A stretch of 64,000 nt of DNA from Ruminococcus sp. (GTDB lineage Bacteria > Bacillota > Clostridia > Oscillospirales > Ruminococcaceae): contig JAIDTI010000089.1 in the NCBI GenBank assembly GCA_029060755.1, positions 1,744 through 65,743 on the forward strand, given 5' to 3'. The translations under genes and the position numbers were made by a program. Of this stretch, positions 5,531 through 43,929 are shown in pieces (the stretch's first letter is position 1; each line of letters opens with the position of its first letter). The notes beneath the pieces were generated by a model that worked only from the letters and a program-made list of their open reading frames with translations, searched no databases and had not been told where the DNA came from.

Positions 5531-5872
5531 ATGAAATCTATAGATTTCTATTATAAGGGAATTGAGGAATTTAACAAGAAAAATTATTTATCAGCAATAG
5601 AATATTTCAAAATTTCTGGCAGTTTAGAAAATCACTATAAAACATATGAAATGTTATTCCAATGCTGGAAAGCAGTTTCCAACATGAATGAAGCTTATGA
5701 TTGTATAAAAAAAGCTTATGTTTTAAATTCTGCAAATGATAAGGTAGCATATGAATATGCTGAAACATCTGTTCAATTCGGTGATAAAGAATCATCCCAA
5801 AAAGTTTTAACAGAAATCTTGAAAAGAAATCCAACATATAAAAAAGCCAGACAACTTTTAGATTTAATATAA
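5531..5872 (+). CDS. Small TPR-repeat protein
   Basis: YYKG...NYLSAIEYF and EAYDCIKKAY..N helical TPR pattern; abuts the glgP stop. Confidence 0.65.
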   Translation: MKSIDFYYKGIEEFNKKNYLSAIEYFKISGSLENHYKTYEMLFQCWKAVSNMNEAYDCIKKAYVLNSANDKVAYEYAETSVQFGDKESSQKVLTEILKRNPTYKKARQLLDLI

Positions 5873-5879
5873 AAAAATA

Positions 5880-5919
5880 AACACCACAGCACATGAATAA
5901 ATTGAAATGCTGTGGTGTT
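5880..5919. terminator. Bidirectional intrinsic terminator between convergent genes
   Basis: 12-bp inverted repeat AACACCACAGCA / TGCTGTGGTGTT flanked by A and T tracts. Confidence 0.8.
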
Positions 5920-5925
5920 AAATTT

Positions 5926-7611
5926 TTACTTGTTTAAACCGCCGATTATACTGAAAGCATAGGGGATATTTTCAGTGATTGTTTTTGCATCACGTGGATT
6001 TATGGAAAACTCATATGTTCCGATTTGTGCAATATCATTTGTTTCAAGATTTGTTACATATATAGTTACGTTGAAATTATTTGTTTCAGCTGTAAGAGGT
6101 GTAACAATTGAGTTCATTTCAGGGGCAAAAATGGCATATGAAAGTTTTGTTATTTTTCCGTTACTGTCTGTAATTGCATAGTCAACACTGAATCTGCCTG
6201 ATACATCTTTTGGAATCGGTGTATAGAATGCAATATTTTTTGCGTCTGATTTGTCACCTAAAACATAGCTGAAATTAAATTCAGGTACGGGGACTTCTTC
6301 ATCAACAACTTTTACTTCAATTTCAGCATATACAGACGGGTCGCTTACGCTGTAAACAGTTACTTTACATTCTCCGACGGATATACCCTTTATCCAGCCA
6401 TATTTGTCTACAGTTGCGATTTTTTCGTCTGAACTTACCCATATTTCACCTTTATCAGAGGCATTTGCAGGATACATTGTTACCATTGGAATATTTTTTC
6501 CACCTACAGAAATTGTAAAGCTGTTTTGTGAAACGCTTATTTCTGTTACCTTTATATTTGTGGTTGCAGTTGTTTCAGTTCCGGTAGATGTGGTTGTAGT
6601 TTCTGATGTGGTTGTTGATGTAGTTTCTGTTGTTGTTTCCGACGATGTTGCAGTAGTTGTTTCTGATGTTGATGTTGTTGTAATTGGCTCACCGTCTGAT
6701 ACATTTACAATAATTACAGCAAAAACGTTCGGATTGTCGGCACTTTGGATAATAACTTTACATTGTCCCGCTTTTTTGCCGATTATCCAGCCAAGATTAT
6801 TTACAATTGCAATGCTGTCATCAGAGCTTGTCCATTTCATTTCCTGATTTACAGCATTGTTTGGTATTACCTTGATGTCAGTAATTCGCTCCGATTGTCC
6901 GACAGCTATATTTATCTCATTACGATTCAGAATTATTTCTGAAACTTTCTCTGTACTTGCAGTAGTTGTTGAAGAAGTGCTTGTTGTTGTGGAATTTGAT
7001 GTGGCTGTAGAAGTACTTGCAGTTGTATTTGATGTAGCAGTAGAAGTACTTGTGGTTGTATTTGATGTAGCAGTAGAAGTGCTTGCGGTTGTGCTTGATG
7101 TGGCTGTAGAAGTACTTGCAGTTGTACTTGATGTAACAGTAGAAGTGCTTGCAGTTGTACTTGATGTGGCTGTAGAAGTGCTTGTGGTTGTGCTTGATGT
7201 AGTTGTAGCTGTTGTGGTTGTGGACTGAACAGGAGTTTCAAGCATCAGTTCCATAAACTGCTCAATATCTAATTGTCCGCCAGTTGAAACATATGAATAA
7301 TATGCAAGTATTATAGTAGCATCAGAAGCATTAATCTCTCCGCTTTTATCTACATCAGCAGCTTTTTTCTGATTATCATTTAAACTTGATTCTTTTCCGG
7401 TTGAAAGAAGTGAATACTCCTCCAGAACAATAGAAGAATCTGTTGCATCAACAGCATCATCATTATTGACATCGCCCAGCTTGTTGACTGCATCAGCAAA
7501 AGTAACAGGTGTATCAGCGTATGTAGTGATTTCAGGTATACCGACAGGAATAACAGTTGAGATGCCGATTGCTGTTGATATTATGGTTGCTGTAAGTTTT
7601 TTCTTTTTCAT
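5926..7611 (-). CDS. Secreted dockerin protein: signal peptide - dockerin - Thr/Ser linker - Big_2 Ig - Thr linker - Big_2 Ig - C-terminal PknB-like domain
   Basis: MKKKK+hydrophobic signal; duplicated Ca-binding loops GDVNNDDAVDATD and ADVDKSGEINASD (7276..7476); two Big_2-type repeats (WTSSDDSIAIV, WVSSDEKIATV). Confidence 0.85.
   Translation of the reverse strand: MKKKKLTATIISTAIGISTVIPVGIPEITTYADTPVTFADAVNKLGDVNNDDAVDATDSSIVLEEYSLLSTGKESSLNDNQKKAADVDKSGEINASDATIILAYYSYVSTGGQLDIEQFMELMLETPVQSTTTTATTTSSTTTSTSTATSSTTASTSTVTSSTTASTSTATSSTTASTSTATSNTTTSTSTATSNTTASTSTATSNSTTTSTSSTTTASTEKVSEIILNRNEINIAVGQSERITDIKVIPNNAVNQEMKWTSSDDSIAIVNNLGWIIGKKAGQCKVIIQSADNPNVFAVIIVNVSDGEPITTTSTSETTTATSSETTTETTSTTTSETTTTSTGTETTATTNIKVTEISVSQNSFTISVGGKNIPMVTMYPANASDKGEIWVSSDEKIATVDKYGWIKGISVGECKVTVYSVSDPSVYAEIEVKVVDEEVPVPEFNFSYVLGDKSDAKNIAFYTPIPKDVSGRFSVDYAITDSNGKITKLSYAIFAPEMNSIVTPLTAETNNFNVTIYVTNLETNDIAQIGTYEFSINPRDAKTITENIPYAFSIIGGLNK
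6986..7219. repeat. 33-bp tandem repeat (about 7 degenerate copies) encoding the TTASTSTATS[S/N] linker
   Basis: Units such as GTTGTATTTGATGTAGCAGTAGAAGTACTTGTG start at 7022, 7055, 7088, 7121, 7154 and 7187, plus a 36-bp unit at 6986. Confidence 0.9.
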
Positions 7612-7742
7612 GTTTACTCCTCTTATCTATATTTTTTGTGTGGATTTGCACACATTTCATTATACATCTTTTTTTATCAAAAATCAAGACAATAGCAATA
7701 TTGTTAAAAATGTGACTGAAATTTTTGGAATAAATCACAAAA

Positions 7743-7767
7743 AAAGACTGCCAATAATGACAGTCTT
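7743..7767 (-). terminator. Intrinsic terminator of cdaA-cdaR
   Basis: Minus strand AAGACTGTC-attatt-GGCAGTCTT followed by a T tract. Confidence 0.7.
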
Positions 7768-7790
7768 CTATAATATGATATACCTGAAAC

Positions 7791-9089
7791 TTATTCTTGT
7801 TCAGGATTGATTTTTGTACGCTGAATTATTACCTTTGAATTTGTTGTAACCCACACATCATCATAGTTAGGACAGGAGAATGTTACATTTGCATTGAACT
7901 GTTCTGTAGATACCGGAATATTCAGCAGATTTACATCAGCAATAATATCATCTGAATTTATTGCCTGTATTGATTCCTCTGAACCTATAACAGTTATATT
8001 CATTCTTTGCGTAAGGACTTTGTAGTCATAACTGCTGTCAGGAATATTACTTATAGATATTTTACTTTGGTCAACAATTAAATCAGTCTGCGAAAGATTC
8101 TCACTGTCAAGCGTTACTGTAACTGTTTCAAGATTTGAAATATTTATAAACTCACTATTTTCAAGGCTGGTACTAAGGGAAAATGTCTTTGAATAATTTG
8201 GTTTAAGTTCATTAAGAGAAATCACACCTATTGTAAGCGTATCAGGGATTTCCGTCTGACTGTTGTTGCAGGCAAGTAATACAGAATCAGTTGAAAGATT
8301 GAAATTTATCTTGTCTTTGTTAAAATCATTTGGCGCATTGCTTATTGCAACAGTAAGCTTCACTTCTTTCTGTGTGCGTACCGGAATAGTTATGCTGAAA
8401 TTTGTAGTATTGAATTTAAGTGTAGATTTGTCTATCAGTGCATTATCTTCCGTATACAGCTGAATTTCATCACTTGAAAGAACGTATGTCCTATCAAGAC
8501 TTAGTTCTTTTTTTGAAACAGCATAGCACTTTGATATTTTTTCAAGTTGTGCGGACGGACCTGTTATGCGTATAACGTCTGGCTCACATGAAAGCTCCTC
8601 ACGATTTATATCTTTTCCATTTACTACTGAAACGTTCGGTATCTGCGGAGTTATCGAAATTTCTTTTGTATCGATTTTATCAAATTCAATTGTTGCAGAG
8701 GGCGGATTAACTGATTTTACATCATATTTTATACCGTTTTTGCTTTTCAGTTTTATAGATATTTTTTTTGTTCCTGCATTTGAAACATTTTCAGCATCAA
8801 TATATGCCTCAATATTTTCACTGTTAATATTTCCTACTTGTGTACGGCTTGCAATAAGTTCAACAGTAACATCTTTTACATCACATGAAACAACACTTAA
8901 GCCATTCAGTTCTGCTGAAGTTCCCGAAATATCAAAAGATACTGGTATATGCTCAATTGTTTTTAAAACTGTCGGATATTGTGTAAGCGATATATAAAGC
9001 CATATTATAACAGCAATTATAACAGAAAAAACAGCAAGAGAAAAATTACTGTTAAAAAGATTTTCTTTCAGTCTGTTTATATGTTTCAT
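7791..9089 (-). CDS. cdaR: CdaR/YbbR-domain regulator of diadenylate cyclase
   Basis: N-terminal TM (LAVFSVIIAVIIWLYI) followed by YbbR-like beta repeats (P..V.I.GP, I.A..D); overlaps the cdaA stop. Confidence 0.88.
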   Translation of the reverse strand: MKHINRLKENLFNSNFSLAVFSVIIAVIIWLYISLTQYPTVLKTIEHIPVSFDISGTSAELNGLSVVSCDVKDVTVELIASRTQVGNINSENIEAYIDAENVSNAGTKKISIKLKSKNGIKYDVKSVNPPSATIEFDKIDTKEISITPQIPNVSVVNGKDINREELSCEPDVIRITGPSAQLEKISKCYAVSKKELSLDRTYVLSSDEIQLYTEDNALIDKSTLKFNTTNFSITIPVRTQKEVKLTVAISNAPNDFNKDKINFNLSTDSVLLACNNSQTEIPDTLTIGVISLNELKPNYSKTFSLSTSLENSEFINISNLETVTVTLDSENLSQTDLIVDQSKISISNIPDSSYDYKVLTQRMNITVIGSEESIQAINSDDIIADVNLLNIPVSTEQFNANVTFSCPNYDDVWVTTNSKVIIQRTKINPEQE

Positions 9090-9964
9090 TTTTTCTTCCT
9101 TCTTCCTAAAATAGAGGAAAGTACATTCTTTGAATTTTCTTCATCAGACGGACTTTCATAGAATATCTCTTTTTCAAGAGTGGATTTAAGCATTTCATGT
9201 GTGTAATCTCTTGTAAGAACACCTTTCATGGCAACAGAAATTTGTCCTGTTTCCTCTGATACAACAATGACAAGAGCATCTGAATTTTCACTCATGCCGA
9301 TAGCGGCACGGTGACGAGAGCCGAGACTTTTATCAATAAGCCGGTCATTCTGTGCTTTCGGCAGAAAACAAGCTGCGGCGAGTATCATTCCGTTTCGCAT
9401 TATTACAGCACCATCATGCAGAGGTGTTTTAGGATAAAATATATTGCCGAAAATCTGCTGACTTGGCAGAGCGTTCATTATAGTACCAGATTCAATCTGT
9501 TCACCGAGTTTTGTCTGTCGTTCAATTACAATCAGTGCACCCGTACAGCTTGCCGACAGTTCAACACACGAATCACATATTACATCAATAGCCTTGTTCC
9601 ATTGCTGTTTTACGTCATTTGACGGTGTGCCTATGCCTATTTTTATTCCAAGTGCTGTTTGTCCGAACTGCTCCAAAGCTCGACGGAGTTCGGGCTGAAA
9701 CAATACAATCATGGCAACAAGACCAATATCAAGAGCATGGCTGAGCATATATCTTATTACAGTCAGCTCAAACAGACTGCTTAGTATATATGCAATAACA
9801 AGCAGGAATATTCCTTTCAGAAGCTGACCCGCCCTTGTTTCACGTATAAGTTTAAGAAGAAGATAGATTATGTAGGCAAGTACAGCAAGGTCAATAATAT
9901 CTTTTGGTCCAATTGTACTCATAAGACTGAAGAAAGCATATTTTATTTCCTGAAATGCTGGCAT
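9086..9964 (-). CDS. cdaA: Membrane diadenylate cyclase (c-di-AMP synthase)
   Basis: 3 TM helices, LFQPELRRALE, TPLHDGAV (DGA) and LGSRHRAAIGMSE (RHR) motifs. Confidence 0.97.
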   Translation of the reverse strand: MPAFQEIKYAFFSLMSTIGPKDIIDLAVLAYIIYLLLKLIRETRAGQLLKGIFLLVIAYILSSLFELTVIRYMLSHALDIGLVAMIVLFQPELRRALEQFGQTALGIKIGIGTPSNDVKQQWNKAIDVICDSCVELSASCTGALIVIERQTKLGEQIESGTIMNALPSQQIFGNIFYPKTPLHDGAVIMRNGMILAAACFLPKAQNDRLIDKSLGSRHRAAIGMSENSDALVIVVSEETGQISVAMKGVLTRDYTHEMLKSTLEKEIFYESPSDEENSKNVLSSILGRRKKK

Positions 9965-25136: not shown

Positions 25137-27491
25137 ATGAAGTTAAAAAAGTTTACAGCGGTATTGTCTGCAATTGCAATGTCCGCAAGTATGCTCAGTA
25201 CAGTTCCTTTTGCAAATGCAGCCGAAAGCGACTACAATTATGCAGAAGCACTTCAGAAGTCCATGTTTTTCTATGAAGTTCAGCAGGCAGGTATTTTACC
25301 TGAATGGAACTCTGTTCCATGGCGTGCTGATTCTATGGTGGACGAAAGTGGTAAAGAAACTGATGTAGTTCCTGGAGGCTGGTTTGATGCAGGTGACCAT
25401 TTTAAATTTGCACTCACAAATGCTTACAGTGCATCAATTATGGCATGGGGATATATCCAGTATAAAGATGCTGTTGACAAAACCGGTCTTGGCGAAAGTT
25501 ACAGAAATAACATACAGTGGGCTATGGACTTTGTTCTGGGTTGTGACCGTGATGATAAAATAATCGGTACTATCGGCGACTTTACAGGCGGTTCAACCGA
25601 CCACAATATCTGGTGCAGTGCTGAAGTTTATCTCAGAAAACATCATCTTAACAATGATGACTGGGAACGTCCGTATGATGAAATCGAAAATGCGTCAGTA
25701 GAAGCACTTGCAGCCGCATGCCTTGCTGAAGGTTACATTATCTTCAAGGACGAACAGCCTGAAAAAGCTGCTGAATATCTTGAACACGCAAAAAGTCTTT
25801 TTGAAACTGCTGACAAGACAAGAGATTGCAAAGATATTGGTGGTATGACAGGTATGTACAATACATCGTCATGGCTTGATGACTGTATGTATGCTGCTAA
25901 CTGGCTTTATATAGCTACTGGTGAACAGAAGTATCTTGATATTTGTGAAAGTGATTATATTCCAAATTTTCCAACCGAAAATCAGTCAACTGACCGCAAG
26001 TATACATGGGGACTTTGCTGGGACGATACTTCTCAGGCTGCCGCTTTGCTTTATGCTCAGAATACAGGTAAAAAAGAATGGGTTGACCATGTTTCACGCC
26101 ATTTGAAATACTGGATGGGTGAGGATTCAAAGCCATTTGAGGGAAAAATCACTCCCAAAGGTCTTTCATGGCTTATGCAATGGGGCTGCCTCCGTCATGC
26201 CACAAATACTGCTTGGATTGCAAAACTTGCAAGTGATACGATTTTCAAGGATGATGCAGCTCTTGCAGCTAAGTATGATAAATGGGCAGACAGTCAGATG
26301 AATTATTGTTTTGGTGATAATGAAGAAAATCTCAGCTATGTACTTGGAATGGGTGAAAAATCTCCCTCAGCCATTCACCACAGAACAGCTTCGGGTATTC
26401 ATGATGACCACTGGAATGAACTCGGTCAGGAAGAAGAAAGTACAGAGGGTTGGCAGACTGAATATGCACATACTCTTTATGGTGCGCTCATAGGCGGTCC
26501 TGATAGTGATGGAAGTTACGGAAATTATAAAGTTTCGGACTTTCAGTATACGGAAGTTGCTGTTGACTATAATGCAGGCTACACTGCTGCTCTTTGTGCT
26601 ATGATAGATGATTATGGTGGAAAGACTCTTGCTGATTTCCCACCAACAGAAACTCCGAAGTGGGCAGAATGGGAAATTGCCGCAGTTCTTAACGGTTCAG
26701 GCGATAGCTATACTGAAATCAAGGCATGGGCAATGAATCACACAGCATGGCCTACAAGAGTAGCAGAGAATATCAAATACAGATATTATTTTGATATTTC
26801 TGAACTCAAATCGGCTGGTCTTTCAGTGGATAATATTGAAATCAAGAGCAATTCACAGCAGTATCAGGAGGGAGAGCAGGGTTATGCAACTGTTGAAGGT
26901 CCATTCTTGTATGAGGGTGACTCATCAGGCAATACTTACTATGCTGAAATAAAATTTGCAGACGGCAGAGCAATTCAGCCGACTGGTCAGAGTGAACACC
27001 GTGACGAAGTACAGTTCAGAATCTCAATCCCTGATGCTATCGACGGACAGTCTACAAAAGGTGCGTGGGACCCATCAAATGACTGGTCATACAAAGGTGT
27101 TGAAGATGCAACAGACCTCAAGAAGCCTGATTCTCTCAATGAATACATTACAATGTATGTAGATGATGTTCTTGTATGGGGTACAGAACCTGACGGCACA
27201 ACTCCTAACCTCTCACAGCCTGCTACAAAGCCCACAACACCATTAACATCATCAACAACAGGCGGTGACAGCAAAACTCTCTATGGTGATGCAAACTGCG
27301 ATAATGAAGTAAATATTGCTGATGCTACAGCTATTATTCAGGCTCTCGGAAACAAGGATAAATATGGTCTTTCTGAACAAGGTGCAATTAATGCTGATAT
27401 TGACGGCGAAGAGGGTGTAACAGGCGCAGATGCATTAGTGCTTATGCAGCTTGAAGCAGGCATGATTACTGAAATTCCGATTAAAAAATAA
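25137..27491 (+). CDS. Cellulosomal endoglucanase: GH9 - CBM3c - Thr linker - dockerin
   Basis: Signal peptide, NYAEALQKS..FYE, GGWFDAGDH, HHRTA, TEVAVDYNAG; CBM3-like KYRYYFDISE and EVQFRI; dockerin GDANCD from 27285. Confidence 0.93.
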   Translation: MKLKKFTAVLSAIAMSASMLSTVPFANAAESDYNYAEALQKSMFFYEVQQAGILPEWNSVPWRADSMVDESGKETDVVPGGWFDAGDHFKFALTNAYSASIMAWGYIQYKDAVDKTGLGESYRNNIQWAMDFVLGCDRDDKIIGTIGDFTGGSTDHNIWCSAEVYLRKHHLNNDDWERPYDEIENASVEALAAACLAEGYIIFKDEQPEKAAEYLEHAKSLFETADKTRDCKDIGGMTGMYNTSSWLDDCMYAANWLYIATGEQKYLDICESDYIPNFPTENQSTDRKYTWGLCWDDTSQAAALLYAQNTGKKEWVDHVSRHLKYWMGEDSKPFEGKITPKGLSWLMQWGCLRHATNTAWIAKLASDTIFKDDAALAAKYDKWADSQMNYCFGDNEENLSYVLGMGEKSPSAIHHRTASGIHDDHWNELGQEEESTEGWQTEYAHTLYGALIGGPDSDGSYGNYKVSDFQYTEVAVDYNAGYTAALCAMIDDYGGKTLADFPPTETPKWAEWEIAAVLNGSGDSYTEIKAWAMNHTAWPTRVAENIKYRYYFDISELKSAGLSVDNIEIKSNSQQYQEGEQGYATVEGPFLYEGDSSGNTYYAEIKFADGRAIQPTGQSEHRDEVQFRISIPDAIDGQSTKGAWDPSNDWSYKGVEDATDLKKPDSLNEYITMYVDDVLVWGTEPDGTTPNLSQPATKPTTPLTSSTTGGDSKTLYGDANCDNEVNIADATAIIQALGNKDKYGLSEQGAINADIDGEEGVTGADALVLMQLEAGMITEIPIKK

Positions 27492-27773: not shown

Positions 27774-30700
27774 ATGCACAAGAAATTTTTCAAGGCTTTT
27801 GCCGGAAGTCTTATGTCTGCTGCTATGCTCGCTACTGCTGTAACAGGTGTTGTTGCTCCTATGAGCGCATCAGCTGGTCAGGTGCTTGGTGAAACAAGCT
27901 TTGAGTATAAGGCACTTCCTTGGCATACCTGCGAATCAAGTCCTGCAAAGCAGAACTTCGCAATTGAAGGTGAAGCAGTTCATATTTCAATCGTAAAGGC
28001 AGAAGGTGCTGATAAGGAAAAGTGGGACCTTCAGTTCAGACACAGAAACCTTAACTTTAAATCTGGTCACAAATATACAGTAAGCTTCACAGCAAAGGCA
28101 AGCAGAGCTGGTCTGGAACTTTGCTCAAAGATTGGTAATATCAAGGGTGATGAAGAATACTGCGTTGTTAACGGTAATGAGGGAACTATGCAGATGGGTC
28201 CACACATGGGCGGTCAGTGGGGTAATGCTGCTAAGCTGACTACTGAATATCAGACATATAAAGGTACATTTACTCCTACTCAAGACCTTGAGGGTGCTGA
28301 ATGGGCTTTCCATTATGCAAAGGGTACTAAGTTTGAAGGTAACGCTCAGGACGGCGACGAAATCTGGTTTGACGAGATGTCTATCGTTTGTGAAACTTGC
28401 GATGAATGTAATGCAGACCCACAGGCTTCATATGGTGCTGTAAACCGTGACTATAGTACAACTGCTGACAGCAGACTCGGTACTATCGGCGCAACTAAGA
28501 ATTTTATTTCTGTAAACCAGATTGGTTATTATACAAATCTTAAAAAGATTGCAACTCTCGGTGACAACGCTGGTGATATTCTTCACGGTGCTACAAAAAT
28601 AAGTCTCAGCGGTTCTTATGACTTCGAGCTTATTGATGTAAGTTCTGGAACTGCTGTATACACAGGCAAGACTTCAGAAGTTAAGGCTGATAAGGATTCT
28701 GCTGATAATATTTGTACACTTGACTTTTCCGAATACAATAAACCCGGCAGATACTATCTCCAGATAAAAGGACAGGACTGGAGGTCATTCGAGTTTTATA
28801 TCGGTGACAATATTTACTACGATGAGTCGCACAACCTCCTTACAAATGCAATGAACTACTTCTATCAGAACCGTTCAGGTGTTGATATTGAAGATAAATA
28901 CTGTACATCAGGCGGTTCAGACGGCAAGGGTACAGGAATGGGACATAAAGGCGGTCACGCAACTGATACAGCTACAATTCAGAAAATCTGGAAGAATGAA
29001 TATGCTTCTAAGGAAGAGGCTACTTCAACATACAAGTCAGGTACTCTTACTGCAAGCGGCGGCTGGTACGATGCCGGTGACCACGGTAAATACGTTGTAA
29101 ACGGCGGTATCTCTGTTTGGACACTCCAGAATATGTATGAAAGAGCAATTCTCCAGGACGGCTATGACAAGAAGTTTGACGATAATTCAGGCGTTGTTGT
29201 AATTCCAGAAGCTGGAAACAAAGTTCCTGATGTTCTTGATGAAGCTGCTGTAGAACTTGACTGGATTGCACAGATGAAAGTTGTTTCAAGCGACACTGCA
29301 TGGGGCAAATATGATGGTCTTTACTATCACAAACTTCACGACCACAAATGGACAGGTCTTGCTACAAGACCTTGGGACTACGAGTCAGAATGGGAAACAG
29401 TTCGTATCGTAAAGCCTCCAACGCTCGCTGCTACACTTAACTATGCTGCTTGTGCTGCACAGGCTGCAAGACTTTGGGAGCCTTATGACTCTGCAAAGGC
29501 AAAGACATATCTTGAAAGTGCTAAGGAAGCATTTGCTGCATATGAAAAGCACTGGTATGCTTATGACGACACTGATACTACTCACCCAGAGCTTAATTGC
29601 CCTTGTAAAAAGGAAGAACTTAACGAAAATTCACTCTATGCTCCAATGTGGCACGCAAAGGGCGGCGGACCTTACGGTGATGACAACGTTCTTGACGATG
29701 CTTACTGGGCAGCTTGTGAAATCTTCGTATCTGCTTCACAGATGGGCGATTCTGATGCTGCAACATATAAGAGCAAGATTGACGACCCTAAATACTCTGA
29801 ATATGCTTACAAGGTAGGCACAAGAATGATTGGTGGCGAAAACAAGGGCAGTGGTTCATTTACATCATTCAACTGGGGCAATACTGCTTCTGCTGGTTCA
29901 CTTACACTTGCTCTTCATAGCGACCTTCTCTCTGAAAGCGAAAACAGCGAAATATTAAAAAGCGTTAAGGCTGCTGCTGATGCATATATTGAGTGCGAAG
30001 GTGAACAGGGCTACGGTATTCCATACAAGTATGACGGTCCTGACTACAATGACCCGAACAACCTTGACCCGAAGATTATGATTAACGGCTATGAGTGGGG
30101 TTCAAACTCAATGGTTATCAATAACTGTATCGTTATGGCTTATGCTTATGATTTGACAAAGGATATTAACTACATGAACGGTGTTGCTACAGGTCTTGAC
30201 TACCTCTTCGGACGTAACCCGCTTTCATACTCATTTGTTACAGGTTACGGCACATATAAGGAACACAATCCACACCACAGATATTGGTCTTATGAACTTG
30301 ACAAGACATTGCCTATGGCTCCTGACGGTATTCTTTCAGGTGGTCCTAACGCAGGTCTTCAGGACCCATATGTACGTGCTTTAGGATTTGTTCCTGGCAA
30401 AACAACAAACCCATCACAGAGATGCTTTGTTGACTCAATCGAAGCATGGTCTACAAACGAAGTTACAATCAACTGGAATGCTCCTCTTGCTTGGATTGCT
30501 TCATTCATGCAGGACGAAGCTGCAAAAGCTGATCCGAACGGTCAAGGACAGCAGGGAACAACAAAGCCAACTACTGGTACTACATCTGGCTCAGACAAGA
30601 CTCTCTGGGGCGATGCTAACTGCGACGGTGAAGTAAATATCGCTGATGCTACAGCTATTGTTCAGGCTCTCGGCAATAAGGATAAGTATGCACTTGAAGA

Positions 30701-30848
30701 ACAGGGTGCTATCAATGCTGACATTGTTGACAACGGCGGCGGTGTAACAGGTATCGATGCTCTTGCACTTAGCCTTATGGAAGCAGGCAGAGTAACACAG
30801 CCAGAGTTCCCACTTACTCTTGAAAAGTTCAACTCAATCAGTGGCTGA
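27774..30848 (+). CDS. Cellulosomal cellulase: CBM4 - Ig - GH9 - Thr linker - dockerin (CbhA/CelK-type architecture)
   Basis: Signal peptide, CBM4-like WDLQFRH and WFDEMS, Ig VNQIGY, GGWYDAGDHGKY, HNPHHR, NEVTINWNAPL; dockerin GDANCDG from 30609. Confidence 0.93.
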   Translation: MHKKFFKAFAGSLMSAAMLATAVTGVVAPMSASAGQVLGETSFEYKALPWHTCESSPAKQNFAIEGEAVHISIVKAEGADKEKWDLQFRHRNLNFKSGHKYTVSFTAKASRAGLELCSKIGNIKGDEEYCVVNGNEGTMQMGPHMGGQWGNAAKLTTEYQTYKGTFTPTQDLEGAEWAFHYAKGTKFEGNAQDGDEIWFDEMSIVCETCDECNADPQASYGAVNRDYSTTADSRLGTIGATKNFISVNQIGYYTNLKKIATLGDNAGDILHGATKISLSGSYDFELIDVSSGTAVYTGKTSEVKADKDSADNICTLDFSEYNKPGRYYLQIKGQDWRSFEFYIGDNIYYDESHNLLTNAMNYFYQNRSGVDIEDKYCTSGGSDGKGTGMGHKGGHATDTATIQKIWKNEYASKEEATSTYKSGTLTASGGWYDAGDHGKYVVNGGISVWTLQNMYERAILQDGYDKKFDDNSGVVVIPEAGNKVPDVLDEAAVELDWIAQMKVVSSDTAWGKYDGLYYHKLHDHKWTGLATRPWDYESEWETVRIVKPPTLAATLNYAACAAQAARLWEPYDSAKAKTYLESAKEAFAAYEKHWYAYDDTDTTHPELNCPCKKEELNENSLYAPMWHAKGGGPYGDDNVLDDAYWAACEIFVSASQMGDSDAATYKSKIDDPKYSEYAYKVGTRMIGGENKGSGSFTSFNWGNTASAGSLTLALHSDLLSESENSEILKSVKAAADAYIECEGEQGYGIPYKYDGPDYNDPNNLDPKIMINGYEWGSNSMVINNCIVMAYAYDLTKDINYMNGVATGLDYLFGRNPLSYSFVTGYGTYKEHNPHHRYWSYELDKTLPMAPDGILSGGPNAGLQDPYVRALGFVPGKTTNPSQRCFVDSIEAWSTNEVTINWNAPLAWIASFMQDEAAKADPNGQGQQGTTKPTTGTTSGSDKTLWGDANCDGEVNIADATAIVQALGNKDKYALEEQGAINADIVDNGGGVTGIDALALSLMEAGRVTQPEFPLTLEKFNSISG

Positions 30849-38775: not shown

Positions 38776-38793
38776 TTGAAAGAGGTGAAATCA

Positions 38794-39849
38794 TTGGAAA
38801 AAACTGATATATTAAGTCTTGATTTGCATGAATTGCAGTTAGCTCTTGAGGAAATGGGTGAGAAAAAATTCAGGGCAAAACAAATATTCCAATGGCTTCA
38901 CGTAAAAAGAGTACTTGATTTTGACAAAATGACTGATATTTCTATCCAATTAAGGGAGCGTCTGAAAGAAAATTTTTGTATAAATGGACTATTTATGCAG
39001 AAAAGACTTGCATCTTGTATAGATAATACGGTAAAATATCTTTATAAGCTTAATGACGGTAATTTTGTTGAGACTGTTTTAATGCAATATCACTATGGAA
39101 ACAGTCTCTGCATATCAACACAAGTTGGCTGTAAAATGGGCTGTAAATTTTGTGCATCAGCAATTGCGGGATTTGTGCGAAATCTTGAACCGTCTGAAAT
39201 GCTTATGCAGATTTATGAGACGGAGAAAAATTCGGGTGTAAAAATTTCCAACCTTGTGCTTATGGGTATAGGTGAACCGCTTGATAATTTTGATAATGTC
39301 ATGAAATTTCTGAATATTCTTTCTCATAAGGACGGAAATAATTTCAGTCTGCGTCATGTTTCGCTTTCAACCTGCGGATTAGTTCCAAAGATTTATGAAC
39401 TTGCTGAACTGAAGCTTGGTCTTACGCTTTGCATTTCTCTCCATAGTGCAGATAATTCAGCACGGAGTGAAATAATGCCTGTCAATTGTGCATATAATAT
39501 AGATGAGCTTATAAAAGCCTGCAAATATTATATTACTGAAACAGGACGACGTATAACGTTTGAATATGCGGTAATTGATAATGTAAATTCGTCTGATAAA
39601 GATGCAGACAAGCTTGCTGATTTACTTCGTGGAATTAACTGCCATGTCAATCTTATTCCAGTTAACAAGGTAAAGGAAAGAAATTATAAAACTGCAAAAA
39701 ATGCTGTAGCTGAATTTGCAGAACGACTTGAAAGACGTGGGATAAATGCAACAGTGAGACGAACTCTTGGAAGTGATATAGAAGCAGCCTGCGGTCAGTT
39801 GAGGCGAGATGCGGTAAATAAAAATGTGAGTGGAGGTGTGAATAAATGA
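38794..39849 (+). CDS. rlmN: 23S rRNA m2A2503 / tRNA radical SAM methyltransferase
   Basis: CISTQVGCKMGCKFC, MGIGEP and DIEAACGQL motifs; TTG at 38794 follows GAGGTG. Confidence 0.96.
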   Translation: MEKTDILSLDLHELQLALEEMGEKKFRAKQIFQWLHVKRVLDFDKMTDISIQLRERLKENFCINGLFMQKRLASCIDNTVKYLYKLNDGNFVETVLMQYHYGNSLCISTQVGCKMGCKFCASAIAGFVRNLEPSEMLMQIYETEKNSGVKISNLVLMGIGEPLDNFDNVMKFLNILSHKDGNNFSLRHVSLSTCGLVPKIYELAELKLGLTLCISLHSADNSARSEIMPVNCAYNIDELIKACKYYITETGRRITFEYAVIDNVNSSDKDADKLADLLRGINCHVNLIPVNKVKERNYKTAKNAVAEFAERLERRGINATVRRTLGSDIEAACGQLRRDAVNKNVSGGVNK

Positions 39850-40577
39850 AGTTCAGATTTGATACAAATATAGGATTGAAACGTGAAGAAAATCAGGATA
39901 CAGTCAGGTGTGAATATTTCGGCAGAAATGTTCTTGCTGTTGTATGTGACGGAATGGGCGGTGAACGAGCGGGAAAAGATGCAAGTGAGATTGCTATAAG
40001 AGAATTTTTCCAACGATTCAAAGACGGTTATAATGATGAACTTGACAACGACGGAATACGAAAACTGCTGATTTCGTCGGTTTCAGCAGCTAATTCAGTG
40101 ATTTACACAAAAGCTAAAATGGATTTTACAAATTTTGGCATGGGTACAACGTGTGTGGCGGCTTTTATAAATTCAGATGCGGCATTTATTGCAAATGTAG
40201 GCGACAGCCGTGCATATGTTGTTGTTAAGGAATCGGGAATATATCAGGTTACATCAGACCATAACGTTGCAACTATGCTTTATGAGCAGGGAGAAATTAC
40301 AGAGGAAGAAATGCAGAATCACCCGAAAAGACATATGCTTACAAGAGCAGTCGGAGTTGATAAAACGGTGCTTACTGATACATTTATTCTCACCTATGAT
40401 GACAAAATAAATCTTCTTCTCTGTTCGGACGGTTTGTCAGGCTATTGCAGTGATGATGAAATATTTAGTGTTATTTGTGAAAATAGTTTTGATAATACTG
40501 TAGACGCTCTTATCGGTCTTGCGCTTGATAAAGGCGGTAGGGATAATGTTACAATTGCATATATCTCTAATGAATAA
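39846..40577 (+). CDS. stp: PP2C-family Ser/Thr phosphatase (Stp1/PrpC)
   Basis: ENQD, VCDGMGG, ANVGDSRAY, LLCSDGLS and GRDNVT motifs. Confidence 0.95.
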   Translation: MKFRFDTNIGLKREENQDTVRCEYFGRNVLAVVCDGMGGERAGKDASEIAIREFFQRFKDGYNDELDNDGIRKLLISSVSAANSVIYTKAKMDFTNFGMGTTCVAAFINSDAAFIANVGDSRAYVVVKESGIYQVTSDHNVATMLYEQGEITEEEMQNHPKRHMLTRAVGVDKTVLTDTFILTYDDKINLLLCSDGLSGYCSDDEIFSVICENSFDNTVDALIGLALDKGGRDNVTIAYISNE

Positions 40578-40624: not shown

Positions 40625-43054
40625 ATGGACAAGTACATTGGAAAAAAACTTGATGGCAGATATGAGATAACTGAACTCATAGGCGTTGGCGGAATGGCTG
40701 AAGTTTATAAGGGTGCAGATGTTATTGATAACAAGCCTGTTGCTATCAAAATTCTCAAAAAGGAGTATGCAGAGAATGAAGAATTTCTGCGCCGTTTCAG
40801 AAATGAATCAAAGGCAATTGCAGTTCTCTCTCACCCGAATATTGTAAAGATTTATGATGTCGGATTTTCTGACCAGCTACAATATATTGTAATGGAATAT
40901 ATTGAGGGAATTACTCTTAAAGAGTATATTGAGGAAGAACAGGTGCTTACATGGAAAGATACTGTACATTTTGTGATACAGATTCTCCGTGCATTACAGC
41001 ACGCTCATGATAAAGGTATTGTACACAGGGATATAAAACCGCAGAATATAATGATGTTCAGCGACGGCACTATAAAGGTCATGGATTTTGGTATCGCAAA
41101 ATTTGCCCGTGAAGAAGGCAAGACTGCTACAGACCAGGCTATTGGAAGTGTACATTATATCAGTCCGGAACAGGCGGGCGGTGATGTTACAGACCAGAAA
41201 AGCGACATCTATTCAGTTGGCGCAATGATGTATGAGATGCTTACAGGGCAGAAACCTTTTGACAGTGATAATCCCGTAGCCATTGCAGTGATGCATATGC
41301 ACGATATTCCGGAACGTCCAAGAGCTATTAATCCTGATATTCCTGACGGACTGGAAGAAATCGTACTTAGAGCTATGGAAAAAGCTCCTGCTGACAGATA
41401 CCAGAATACAGATGAAATGATTTCTGATATTACAGATTTCAAGGATAATCCGAATATCGTTTTTGGCTATTATCAGGAGGAAGGCACAGACGATGATGCA
41501 GATACTGTATATGTAGGTCAGGCAGGAAATGAGTATGCAGAGCCAGTACAGGAAAGACAGAATGTATATGCACCTGACAGAAACGGCGGTTATTACGGCA
41601 ATTCCAATCAGCCTTATGCTGATGCCTATGCAAATGATGATTATTATAATGATGATGATGATTATGATGAAGATGATGACGATGAGGAAGAGGGAGAGGA
41701 ACGCTCATCACTTGCTGTTCCTGTTCTTACAGCTGTTGTTGTTGTAGTTATTATTGTCGGAGTTATTGTCATTTCAATGCTTCTTTCGGATATGATTTCA
41801 AATACAACGCAGACAAATGACTGGAGAATGCCTGATGTTGTTGGTATGGATTTCCAGGACGCTCAAAGTGCATATGGAAATAACATCAGATTCCAGGAGG
41901 ACGGACAGGAATTTGATGAGGCAGAAGCTGGTGTCATTATTTATCAGGATTTAGAGCCTGGTACAGAGTTCAAGAAAGGTGATACGCTTAAGGTCAAGAT
42001 AAGTAAGGGCATGGAAACTATAGAAGTTCCTGATGTAACGGAGAAAAATTCACAGCTTGCACAGGATATTCTTGAACAATTCCACCTTAAAGCTGAAATC
42101 AAGAACACGCCAAGTACAGAAGTAGAAAAAGGTAAAGTTATCAAGACAGAGCCTGAAGCAGGACAGAAAGCGCACATTGATTCAACTGTTATTGTTTATG
42201 TAAGTATGGGTCAGGAAGCAGGACAGATTAAAATTGACAATTGGGTTGGCATGACAATTGATGATGCATCAATGCTTGCAGGATATAAAGGTCTTAAGGT
42301 TGCCAATGAACCGATAGCATCTTATGAAGATGAAGGCAAGGTTGTAAAGCAGTCCATTGATGAAAATGAAAAAGTTGAAGTTGGTACAACAATTACTTTC
42401 TATGTAAGTAACGGCAAAAAGCCTGACGGTGAAGTACCTTTCCAGATTGACTTCCCGATTGAAGCTAACGGACGTTTCGTTATTGCCTTTATGTTCAAGA
42501 ATGAGGATGGTACTATGAACATTCAGGAAACATCATATATATACTGTCCTGAAATGGCATCATATACTATGAATGTTGTCGGTTCTGGTGAGGACGTGAG
42601 CGTTACAGTCCAGCTTACAAATCTTAATAACTCAAAGAGAGCAACAGTCGGCACGTATACCTTTAACTTCGCAGATTCTACAGCGGTATGTACAGCAGGC
42701 GGTGACATTCGTTCAGCGTTTGAGCAGGTTGAAGGATTCCCTGAACAGCAGACAACAGAACCGGAAGAGCCGACAACTCAAGAACCAACAGAGCCACAAG
42801 GTGATTATGTTGACGGAACTTATATCTATTATAATGAGGGTGTAAACGGCGACTATGTAAACGGTGTATGGCGTTGGTACGGCGACTATCACAACGGCGT
42901 ATGGGAATGGTATAACAACGGCGGTAACGGCGCATGGATTGACGGCGGTTCAACATGGCAGTGGTATGAGCCATTTGTAAACGGCGAATGGGGTACAGAC
43001 GGTTTCTGGTACTGGTATGGAAACAATAACGGTGGCGGAAACGGAACATGGTAA
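40625..43054 (+). CDS. pknB: PASTA-domain Ser/Thr kinase (PknB/PrkC) with extra C-terminal domain and Trp-rich tail
   Basis: GVGGMAEVY, VAIK, HRDIKPQN, DFG and SPEQ motifs; acidic juxtamembrane linker, TM helix, three PASTA repeats (MPDVVG, VPDVTE, IDNWVG). Confidence 0.96.
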   Translation: MDKYIGKKLDGRYEITELIGVGGMAEVYKGADVIDNKPVAIKILKKEYAENEEFLRRFRNESKAIAVLSHPNIVKIYDVGFSDQLQYIVMEYIEGITLKEYIEEEQVLTWKDTVHFVIQILRALQHAHDKGIVHRDIKPQNIMMFSDGTIKVMDFGIAKFAREEGKTATDQAIGSVHYISPEQAGGDVTDQKSDIYSVGAMMYEMLTGQKPFDSDNPVAIAVMHMHDIPERPRAINPDIPDGLEEIVLRAMEKAPADRYQNTDEMISDITDFKDNPNIVFGYYQEEGTDDDADTVYVGQAGNEYAEPVQERQNVYAPDRNGGYYGNSNQPYADAYANDDYYNDDDDYDEDDDDEEEGEERSSLAVPVLTAVVVVVIIVGVIVISMLLSDMISNTTQTNDWRMPDVVGMDFQDAQSAYGNNIRFQEDGQEFDEAEAGVIIYQDLEPGTEFKKGDTLKVKISKGMETIEVPDVTEKNSQLAQDILEQFHLKAEIKNTPSTEVEKGKVIKTEPEAGQKAHIDSTVIVYVSMGQEAGQIKIDNWVGMTIDDASMLAGYKGLKVANEPIASYEDEGKVVKQSIDENEKVEVGTTITFYVSNGKKPDGEVPFQIDFPIEANGRFVIAFMFKNEDGTMNIQETSYIYCPEMASYTMNVVGSGEDVSVTVQLTNLNNSKRATVGTYTFNFADSTAVCTAGGDIRSAFEQVEGFPEQQTTEPEEPTTQEPTEPQGDYVDGTYIYYNEGVNGDYVNGVWRWYGDYHNGVWEWYNNGGNGAWIDGGSTWQWYEPFVNGEWGTDGFWYWYGNNNGGGNGTW

Positions 43055-43929
43055 ACGCTGGTAAAACAAGCGGAATTATACTGAAATGCTTAGGGGGACT
43101 CTATACAGTGGAGTCCCCTGATGACATTTTTGAATGTAAGGCAAGAGGAATTTTCCGCAAAAAAGGAATAAGCCCATCTGTTGGAGATAATGTGATTGTA
43201 GAAAATGGCGTTATCTCTGAAATAGGCGAAAGGAAAAATTTTCTTATAAGACCGCCTCTTGCAAATCTTAACCAGATTATTTTTATTGTATCAACTGTAA
43301 GTCCCGTGCCTAATTTTCTTATCCTTGACAAGTTTATTGCCATTGCGGAGTATAAAAATATTGAGCCTGTTATAATCATCACAAAGATTGATTTAGGTGA
43401 CAGCAAGCCCATAAAAGATGTATACAGTTCAATAGGAATAAAGGTTTTTGAAGCAGATTATAACAGTGAATCATCAATACAGGCAGTGCGTGAACTTCTC
43501 AAAGGAAAAATAAGTGCATTTACGGGAAATTCTGGAGCAGGAAAGTCAACACTTCTTAATGCTGTTGACCCCGATTTGAATATTCCTACAGGTGAGATAA
43601 GCAAAAAGCTTGGCAGAGGAAGGCACATTACACGTCATGCAGAACTTTACAGGCTGAAAGACGGCGGATATATTGCTGATACTCCCGGTTTCTCTACATT
43701 TGAAACTAACCGTTATGACATAATACGAAAAGAAGAACTTGCAGGCTGTTTCCGTGAATTTGCTGATTATACTGAAAATTGTCTTTTCCGTGACTGCTCT
43801 CACACCTGCGAAAAAGGCTGTGCAGTTGTTGAAGCGGTTGCAAATGGTATAATACCAAAAATAAGGCATGAAAGCTATTGTGCTATGTATGATGAGGCAA
43901 AACAGCTTAAGGAGTGGGAACTTAAATGA
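43048..43929 (+). CDS. rsgA: Ribosome small subunit-dependent GTPase A
   Basis: TKID, GNSGAGKST, GRHIT, DTPGF and C.F.DC.H..E.GC motifs. Confidence 0.96.
   Translation: MVNAGKTSGIILKCLGGLYTVESPDDIFECKARGIFRKKGISPSVGDNVIVENGVISEIGERKNFLIRPPLANLNQIIFIVSTVSPVPNFLILDKFIAIAEYKNIEPVIIITKIDLGDSKPIKDVYSSIGIKVFEADYNSESSIQAVRELLKGKISAFTGNSGAGKSTLLNAVDPDLNIPTGEISKKLGRGRHITRHAELYRLKDGGYIADTPGFSTFETNRYDIIRKEELAGCFREFADYTENCLFRDCSHTCEKGCAVVEAVANGIIPKIRHESYCAMYDEAKQLKEWELK

Follow-up and report, generated by a model that had tools for sequence, protein, structure and literature searches.

A dockerin protein and a PASTA kinase of Ruminococcus share a distal domain

We analysed a stretch of 64,000 nucleotides (nt) from Ruminococcus sp. 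(contig JAIDTI010000089.1; hereafter the window), in which the gene for a dockerin protein and the gene for the Ser/Thr kinase PknB encode a common domain (Table 1). The dockerin protein, in which Pfam finds no catalytic domain, comprises a putative signal peptide, an N-terminal dockerin, two linkers that are each followed by a Big_2 domain and, at its C-terminus, the shared segment, which we name domain X. PknB belongs to the PASTA Ser/Thr kinases by its kinase domain, transmembrane helix, PASTA repeats and score above the curated family cut-off; its copy of X begins four residues past the third PASTA repeat and is followed by a linker and a C-terminal tail.

A sequence-only reading of this DNA had proposed that the dockerin-protein C-terminus resembles the post-PASTA region of PknB, and pairwise, shuffled and profile comparisons all bear this out. 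BLASTP of the whole dockerin protein against the whole of PknB returned a single significant segment (residues 452-537 and 597-682, respectively; 27 of 88 positions identical, E 5e-8), and tblastn lengthened the X match to 114 residues (E 4e-8). The Smith-Waterman score of the pair was 113, compared with 29.7 +/- 5.4 in 2000 shuffles, none of which reached 113 (z = 15.5). Aligned by hhalign, the dockerin-type and PASTA-type profiles of X match over 105 columns with a probability of 99.9% (E 5.5e-33). The motifs that had been aligned by hand (GRF, PEMxS, VTxxxTNL, GTYxF and AF) are in register between the two copies, and the proposed coordinates were right within a few residues. The same reading had described the dockerin protein as secreted, non-catalytic and carrying X at its far end; the Pfam architecture of dockerin, linkers and two Big_2 domains agrees with this, and the putative signal peptide is consistent with secretion. 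A tblastn search of the window found no copy of X beyond these two.

Neither copy of X has a Pfam or NCBIfam model. When 52 members of the X family were scanned against Pfam, no family matched consistently, with weak scattered matches to GldM_3rd, Big_3_2 and PKD in some of them, and sequence searches of the PDB with each copy and with the family profile (E up to 10) returned noise only. Two candidate identities of X, a degenerate Big_2 domain and a degenerate PASTA repeat, were considered and rejected, as in hhalign the profile of the X family matched Big_2 domains taken from its own carrier proteins with a probability of 0.3% and PASTA with one of 0.1%.

Table 1. Features of the window that bear on domain X (- and +, reverse and forward strand; aa, residues of the encoded protein).
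Feature	Position	Strand	Basis and remarks
Dockerin-Big_2-X protein gene (D-type X protein), 561 aa	5926..7611	-	Open reading frame; Pfam domain content
Putative signal peptide, ~aa 1-32 (MKKKK, hydrophobic run, TYA/D)	7516..7611	-	Translation by eye, without predictor
N-terminal dockerin, aa 41-110, two internally similar repeats, ScaH-like / R. flavefaciens group-4-like	7282..7491	-	Pfam Dockerin_1, E 5e-10; PDB match 8AJY_B
Thr/Ser-rich linker 1, aa 125-221	6949..7239	-	33-nt tandem repeat
Big_2 domain 1, aa 222-305	6697..6948	-	Pfam Big_2 (two stretches); phmmer self-similarity
Thr/Ser/Glu-rich linker 2, aa 306-352	6556..6696	-	Translation; 12-nt repeat at 6595-6671 by Tandem Repeats Finder (TRF)
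Big_2 domain 2, aa 353-442	6286..6555	-	Pfam Big_2, best stretch 355-421
Domain X, dockerin-type, aa 457-561 (105 aa), predicted seven-stranded beta-sandwich with C-terminal helix	5929..6243	-	Homology; AlphaFold2
Promoter-like site upstream of dockerin gene, TTGATT-17-TATAAT	7659..7687	-	Sequence scan; same hexamers and spacing before the L003 orthologue
Terminator-like hairpin after ybbR, between ybbR and dockerin gene, 12-bp stem and T run	7742..7769	-	Sequence scan
Hairpin directly past dockerin gene stop, 11-bp stem, 16-nt loop and T run, likely terminator	5871..5918	-	By eye; long loop missed by automated scan
GH9-CBM3-dockerin enzyme	25137-27491
CBM4-Ig(CelD_N)-GH9-dockerin enzyme	27774-30848
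RlmN-like open reading frame, upstream of pknB	38776-39849		Named by eye from translation
PP2C-type open reading frame, upstream of pknB	39846-40577		Named by eye from translation
PknB/PrkC/Stk1-family PASTA Ser/Thr kinase gene, 809 aa	40625..43054	+	NCBIfam NF033483, 566 bits against a cut-off of 450
Kinase domain, aa 11-275	40655..41449	+	Pfam Pkinase, E 7e-57
Transmembrane helix, aa 363-387	41711..41785	+	Hydrophobic run in translation
Three PASTA repeats, aa 399-597	41819..42415	+	Pfam PASTA, 3 stretches, E 8e-34
Domain X, PASTA-type, aa 601-707	42425..42745	+	Homology; AlphaFold2
Trp/Gly/Asn-rich C-terminal tail, 4-5 G-x-NG-x-W-x-W-Y-like repeats	42800..43051	+	After a Pro/Thr/Glu linker; no Pfam match
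RsgA-like open reading frame, downstream of pknB	43048-43929		Named by eye from translation

Domain X is rare and found mainly beyond PASTA repeats

An exhaustive HMMER search with a two-sequence profile of X against 1.84 billion cluster representatives (E <= 1e-3) matched 71 proteins, 63 of which we judged to be true members, the other eight being long Ig-, PKD- or Calx-type repeat proteins that passed the threshold by summed weak scores. Common to the 63 members are the motifs G-x-V-x-F, P-x-x-A-x-GRF-x-ID, LTN, A-x-IGTY-x-F and EDI-x-x-AF-x-x-V-GG. A word-indexed protein search found no relatives of X with the single domain or the two-sequence alignment, and five short fragments with a 52-sequence profile. 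A domain with ~63 clusters among so many representatives, and without a Pfam model, is not the widespread generic Ig module that it might have been.

Besides the window's own proteins, the kinase-PASTA-X architecture was found in 6 clusters and the signal peptide-dockerin-linker-Big_2 (2-4 copies)-X architecture in 9. Another 12 clusters are N-terminally truncated PASTA-X fragments, 11 are kinase-less PASTA-X proteins behind a membrane or lipoprotein N-terminus, 4 are Big_2-X fragments, and the remaining 21 are others, mostly short fragments, which include small lipoproteins or membrane proteins of little beyond X (P0016, P0038, P0053, P0068) and one protein in which X is followed by a C-terminal dockerin. 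To the question whether X occurs only in PknB and dockerin proteins, the answer is that both types were found but that kinase-less PASTA-X proteins carry the domain as well, and their existence indicates that X can accompany PASTA repeats where no kinase domain is present. The kinase-less set includes P0011, P0012, P0027, P0033, P0039, P0044-P0046 and P0063; these proteins are lipoproteins or have an acidic cytoplasmic N-terminus and a transmembrane helix. X is the distal domain in all 9 full-length dockerin proteins even though their number of Big_2 domains varies from 2 to 4.

Names of relatives came only from cluster look-ups, in which each of the three named clusters is 'Ruminococcus sp.' and is annotated as a Stk1-family kinase or an 'Ig-like domain-containing protein'. 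Judged by this survey of sequences, X is a rare, lineage-restricted and primarily post-PASTA domain, confined to Ruminococcus as far as the named matches show.

The dockerin-borne and PASTA-type copies are old paralogues

We denote the dockerin-borne copies of X as D and the PASTA-type copies as K. In a neighbour-joining tree of the trimmed domains, the D copies form one clade, save for one Big_2-linked fragment, and mean identities are 38% within D, 31% within K and 25% between D and K. The D copy of the window shares ~50% identity with other D copies, up to 34% with X domains in the kinases of other organisms and only 26% with the X of its own kinase; since the window's two copies are so far apart, their relationship is one of old paralogy and not of recent copying. 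A recent copy of, or gene conversion from, the window's own pknB was rejected on account of this low identity and the separate D clade. The earlier description of the dockerin-protein segment as a copy of the kinase's domain thus fails in its recent sense, given that D copies form a clade with its own loop motifs and that the window's D copy is no nearer to its own kinase than to those of other species. In an alignment of the eight closer D copies, TPxP, ITDxNG, NF and the P, R and A of SPRDAK are invariant, while GSGExV and FNFA are the motifs kept in K copies. In each protein, X has changed as fast as the PASTA or Big_2 domains that adjoin it.

Both copies are predicted to adopt the same fold

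AlphaFold2 with the family alignment modelled the dockerin X with a predicted local distance difference test score (pLDDT) of 96.6 and a predicted template modelling score (pTM) of 0.88, and the PknB X with a pLDDT of 96.2 and a pTM of 0.85. Both models run through seven strands in an identical order and end in a short C-terminal helix, so that the two copies, whose folds had been suggested for comparison, are predicted to be alike. Foldseek found nothing in the PDB at E <= 1e-3 for either model; the best matches (E ~0.02-0.03, TM score ~0.5 or less) come from a mixture of sandwich domains (FN3, Ig, C2, MD-1, Calx-beta and glycosidase), and a comparison with viral predicted structures gave generic sandwich matches only, none better than those in the PDB. 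The 52 X members matched no carbohydrate-binding module (CBM) family, as a single CBM49 match (1 of 52, E 0.06) is noise, and the best fold matches include no CBM.

Residues kept throughout the family (GRF, GTYxF and AF) alternate within strands in the manner of core positions. The residues that are invariant only in D copies are located at strand ends and turns of the dockerin X model.

The dockerin resembles those that attach proteins to the cell surface

The dockerin scores 39.9 bits against Pfam PF00404 (dockerin type I; gathering cut-off 22.9), with loops DVNNDDAVDATD and DVDKSGEINASD. Its closest PDB sequence is 8AJY_B, 'Dockerin from ScaH' of R. flavefaciens (E 2.8e-12, 31 of 75 positions identical), followed by clostridial type I dockerins at E 1e-6 or worse. 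Its local alignment score is 144 with the ScaH dockerin and 45-57 with the dockerins of the window's two GH9 enzymes, which are all but identical to one another yet show only weak similarity to that of the X protein. The two dockerin repeats agree at ~12 of 27 positions by a count made by eye, and this internal symmetry, together with the proximity to ScaB/CttA/ScaH-type dockerins, places the domain by sequence with group 4. The ScaH dockerin is itself a group-4 dockerin, and dockerins of this group bind the cohesin of the sortase-anchored ScaE, which attaches their carriers directly to the cell surface (PMC5301203); for group-4 dockerin proteins, a part in giving structure to the cell surface, and not in the digestion of fibre, has been suggested (PMC2930009, PMC5301203). 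The expectation that this dockerin is of the kind that binds cell-anchoring cohesins, and is unlike the GH9 dockerins, is accordingly one that the ScaH match favours. The tandem pair of GH9 genes has the same layout as R. flavefaciens FD-1 ORF01132/01133, which carry group-1a dockerins (PMC2930009, Table 1).

A tandem array at 6996-7208 (TRF; 33-nt or 11-residue unit, ~6.5 copies) occupies linker 1. An identical 561-residue protein is also called on an ENA metagenome contig, and in the gut-metagenome run X1 the same gene has a 99-nt in-frame deletion in linker 1, from 6995 to 7095, which indicates that linker length varies between strains.

The dockerin gene keeps its place beside cdaA-ybbR

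In the window, cdaA, which encodes diadenylate cyclase, and ybbR (cdaR) are neighbours of the D-type gene in a region that spans 5926-9964, and they are so at all five informative loci (L001, L003, L004, L005 and L006), which come from the genomes of four relatives. A scan of species genomes, a set without the window's own genome, gave a single locus when run with the one protein. At L003/L004 and L006, the gene directly follows cdaA-ybbR on the same strand; at L001, another dockerin protein is encoded between ybbR and the D-type gene; and at L005, the D-type gene is convergent (inverted), behind a gene for a DUF5620 protein. The GC content of these loci ranges from 38% to 56%, and the opposite flank varies, with glgP in the window, L001 and L006 and clpX-clpP-tig in L003. 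In most Firmicutes, it is glmM that follows cdaR.

Identity to the window's proteins across the loci is 71-77% for CdaA, 82-93% for GlgP and 56-75% for YbbR, compared with 33-48% for the dockerin protein and 35-52% for X. Because its place is kept while its identity is so much lower than that of CdaA, the dockerin protein is, by this comparison of loci, an orthologue conserved in position and, as is usual for surface proteins, fast-evolving. Operonic coupling of the dockerin gene with cdaA-ybbR was rejected for the window, where a terminator and the gene's own promoter lie between them; the neighbourhood is still conserved.

Several further observations concern these loci. The intervening protein at L001 (1760-3913) has 717 residues and a C-terminal dockerin that by eye resembles the dockerins of the window's GH9 enzymes, and the DUF5620 protein at L005 (10330-12468), between ybbR and the dockerin-X gene, is of cellulosome type. 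L001 itself (CAYWPN010000001.1) is labelled 'uncultured Alistipes sp.', yet its GlgP and MalQ are 93% and 88% identical to those of the window and it encodes dockerin proteins, and either the label is probably wrong or the bin contaminated. In the window, a small TPR-like open reading frame (5531-5872) lies between glgP and the dockerin gene, where 'organism A' (runs X5 and X7) has ~260-270 nt of unrelated sequence instead; these runs also diverge at ~9% of bases in the 3' half of the dockerin gene, compared with ~5% in glgP and ybbR.

Around pknB, the order of genes resembles the canonical rlmN-PP2C-pknB-rsgA, as far as the identities assigned by eye to the flanking genes allow. The tail of PknB (residues 726-809), which is also rich in Tyr, is kept in the related kinases P0001, P0002, P0005, P0018, P0022 and P0041 and calls to mind the aromatic repeats that bind cell walls or glycans.

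Domain X as a probable shuffled module of the outer envelope

Plain domain shuffling, which the sequence-only reading had set aside as its null explanation, is the best-supported account of these observations. The main home of X would be the outer end of PASTA proteins, both PknB/PrkC kinases and kinase-less membrane proteins or lipoproteins, and one old shuffling event would have attached a copy to the C-terminal end of a stalk protein at the cell surface, which diverse Ruminococcus species would have retained ever since as one positional orthologue next to cdaA-ybbR. The dockerin protein would be exported by its signal peptide and plugged through its group-4-like dockerin into a cell-wall-anchored cohesin of the ScaE/ScaH type, and its Thr-rich linkers, which are probably glycosylated, and its Big_2 domains would form an extended stalk that holds X at the cell-distal tip. 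In the kinase, X would likewise be positioned at the membrane-distal end of the PASTA rod. In both settings, X most likely binds or contacts a component of the outer envelope or of its surroundings, be it glycan or protein, and the two subfamilies would have diverged to different specificities, which would leave the dockerin protein independent of kinase signalling. Taken as a whole, the proposal that X is a small module for binding or contact in the outer envelope, that its subfamilies have diverged to different partners and that the dockerin protein is an adhesin-like or envelope-organizing protein acting without the kinase is one that we regard as probable, whereas we would give any specific ligand of X far less credence.

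Several points weigh against this proposal. We identified no ligand or partner of X, and because the conservation common to both subfamilies is mostly in the core, it reveals no obvious binding site that they share, and the role of X could be purely structural. The tree behind the two subfamilies is a neighbour-joining tree of short, divergent sequences, and the Big_2-linked copy P0025 falls among the PASTA-type copies. Assignment of the dockerin to group 4 relies on a single solved dockerin that it resembles in sequence (41% identity), it has no obvious counterpart of the Gly-Arg dyad known from symmetrical group-4 dockerins, and no cohesin gene was identified in the 64-kb window, outside of which none was sought. 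Finally, the taxonomic restriction of X draws on three named clusters and one metagenome-assembled genome with a doubtful label.

The core-centred conservation would also fit if X were an inert cap that has no ligand and only ends or stabilizes the PASTA and Big_2 rods. Such a role would also account for a rate of change equal to that of the neighbouring stalk domains and for the position of X, always the last globular domain of a repeat array. We nonetheless consider a cap improbable, though worth keeping in view, as it is opposed by the invariant residues that each subfamily keeps in turns and loops, by the strictly kept distal place in the nine full-length dockerin proteins whatever their number of Big_2 domains, and by the existence of small lipoproteins or membrane proteins that consist of little beyond X.

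A comparable, rather low likelihood attaches to the suggestion that X is a carbohydrate-binding module, with the kinase copy binding peptidoglycan or a wall glycopolymer and the dockerin copy a plant or bacterial glycan, in the manner of the CttA modules on ScaE; this is a specific version of the binding role that we favour. The size of X and its predicted beta-sandwich fold are typical of CBMs, and its place at the tip of a non-catalytic protein with a ScaE-type anchor recalls CttA (PMC5301203), as its place in the kinase recalls the post-PASTA Ig-like domain of S. aureus PrkC, for which peptidoglycan binding has been proposed (PMC3601408), but X matches no CBM family in sequence or in fold.

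The sequence-only reading had gone further, suggesting that the X at the tip of the stalk could be a homotypic partner, decoy or ligand that links the cellulosome surface to Ser/Thr phospho-signalling; it would contact the X of PknB and so let the condition of the cellulosome or of the cell surface influence Ser/Thr phosphorylation. Partner proteins can be recruited by the distal domains of PASTA kinases, as LytB is by StkP PASTA4, and in both proteins X occupies the end farthest from the anchor, in the outer envelope. The dockerin appears to be of the ScaH-like class that attaches directly to the cell surface (PMC5301203), and the gene stays beside cdaA-ybbR, another envelope-linked signalling module. 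A contact between two X domains at the outer face of the wall would then report cellulosome status to the PASTA kinase, and perhaps also to the CdaA-CdaR module of cyclic di-AMP signalling, a scenario that we consider as unlikely as the coupling itself. One would expect a decoy or homotypic partner to evolve in step with the kinase's domain, yet the two copies of one genome are no nearer to each other than to copies of other species; each subfamily has its own conserved loops, and what the two have in common is core. Moreover, the adjacency to cdaA-ybbR is not operonic, with a terminator and a separate promoter in the window and an inverted gene at L005. The ligand, decoy or partner idea is therefore not supported, and we hold a signalling link of this kind to be quite unlikely.

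That the similarity is due to chance, to generic Ig-like resemblance or to recent duplication or gene conversion from the window's own pknB is hardly credible, for although weak scattered matches to Ig-type families occur and a few Ig, Calx or PKD repeat proteins scored, the shuffles and the profile-profile alignment speak against chance, the failure of X to align with Big_2 or PASTA against a generic resemblance, and the 26% identity and separate clade against a recent copy.

Significance and comparison with known systems

A beta-sandwich accessory domain that is shuffled among surface proteins is a familiar kind of object; new here are the X family, its confinement, by the named matches, to Ruminococcus, and the recruitment of X by a conserved protein with a ScaH-like dockerin. 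A search of one literature collection found no paper linking PASTA kinases with dockerin proteins. X is the outermost globular part of an essential-type PASTA kinase in cellulolytic Ruminococcus and is without a close solved fold. For PASTA-kinase biology, it represents a lineage-specific distal domain whose ligand could explain what Ruminococcus kinases sense, and for cellulosome biology, the conserved locus picks out one 'unknown' group-4 dockerin protein as a core, positionally conserved component that is probably anchored through ScaE. If the two X domains did interact, they would form a physical link between the fibre-degrading apparatus and phospho-signalling at the cell envelope, although present evidence favours domain shuffling.

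Among kinases, the nearest counterpart by position is the small beta domain that lies directly past the last PASTA repeat, at the membrane-distal end, in S. aureus PrkC/Stk1 and B. subtilis PrkC, where the X of PknB is placed alike. In the S. aureus PrkC ectodomain (PDB 3PY9), this post-PASTA domain is Ig-like and has been proposed to be adhesive or peptidoglycan-binding (PMC3601408). It is described as an Ig fold left incomplete by a missing N-terminal strand, while the models of X have seven strands and a C-terminal helix; 3PY9 is absent from the top 50 Foldseek matches of either X model, and no PDB chain matches X by sequence. X thus agrees with the PrkC domain in position but not in sequence or fold. 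Big_2 (PF02368) and other bacterial Ig-like stalk domains, which are found in adhesin-like stalks, are like X extracellular beta-sandwiches, but Big_2 is unlike X by profile and X matches no Pfam Ig family consistently.

Among dockerin proteins, the group-4 set of R. flavefaciens FD-1 comprises ScaH, ScaF, ScaI, a peptidase-dockerin protein and proteins of unknown function, which bind the ScaE cohesin. The X protein shares with this set a ScaH-like dockerin sequence, the internal similarity of two repeats and a carrier that is not a glycoside hydrolase. It differs in that its dockerin is N-terminal, as in only 19 of the ~220 FD-1 dockerins (PMC2930009), and in its cargo of Big_2 repeats and X, which is not described in PMC2930009 or PMC5301203. 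A further analogue is CttA of R. flavefaciens, a ScaE-anchored, non-enzymatic dockerin protein whose distal modules bind outside the cell (PMC5301203) and to which the X protein seems comparable, although CttA carries a C-terminal X-module-dockerin dyad and two putative CBMs, and has neither a Big_2 stalk nor a domain of the X type.

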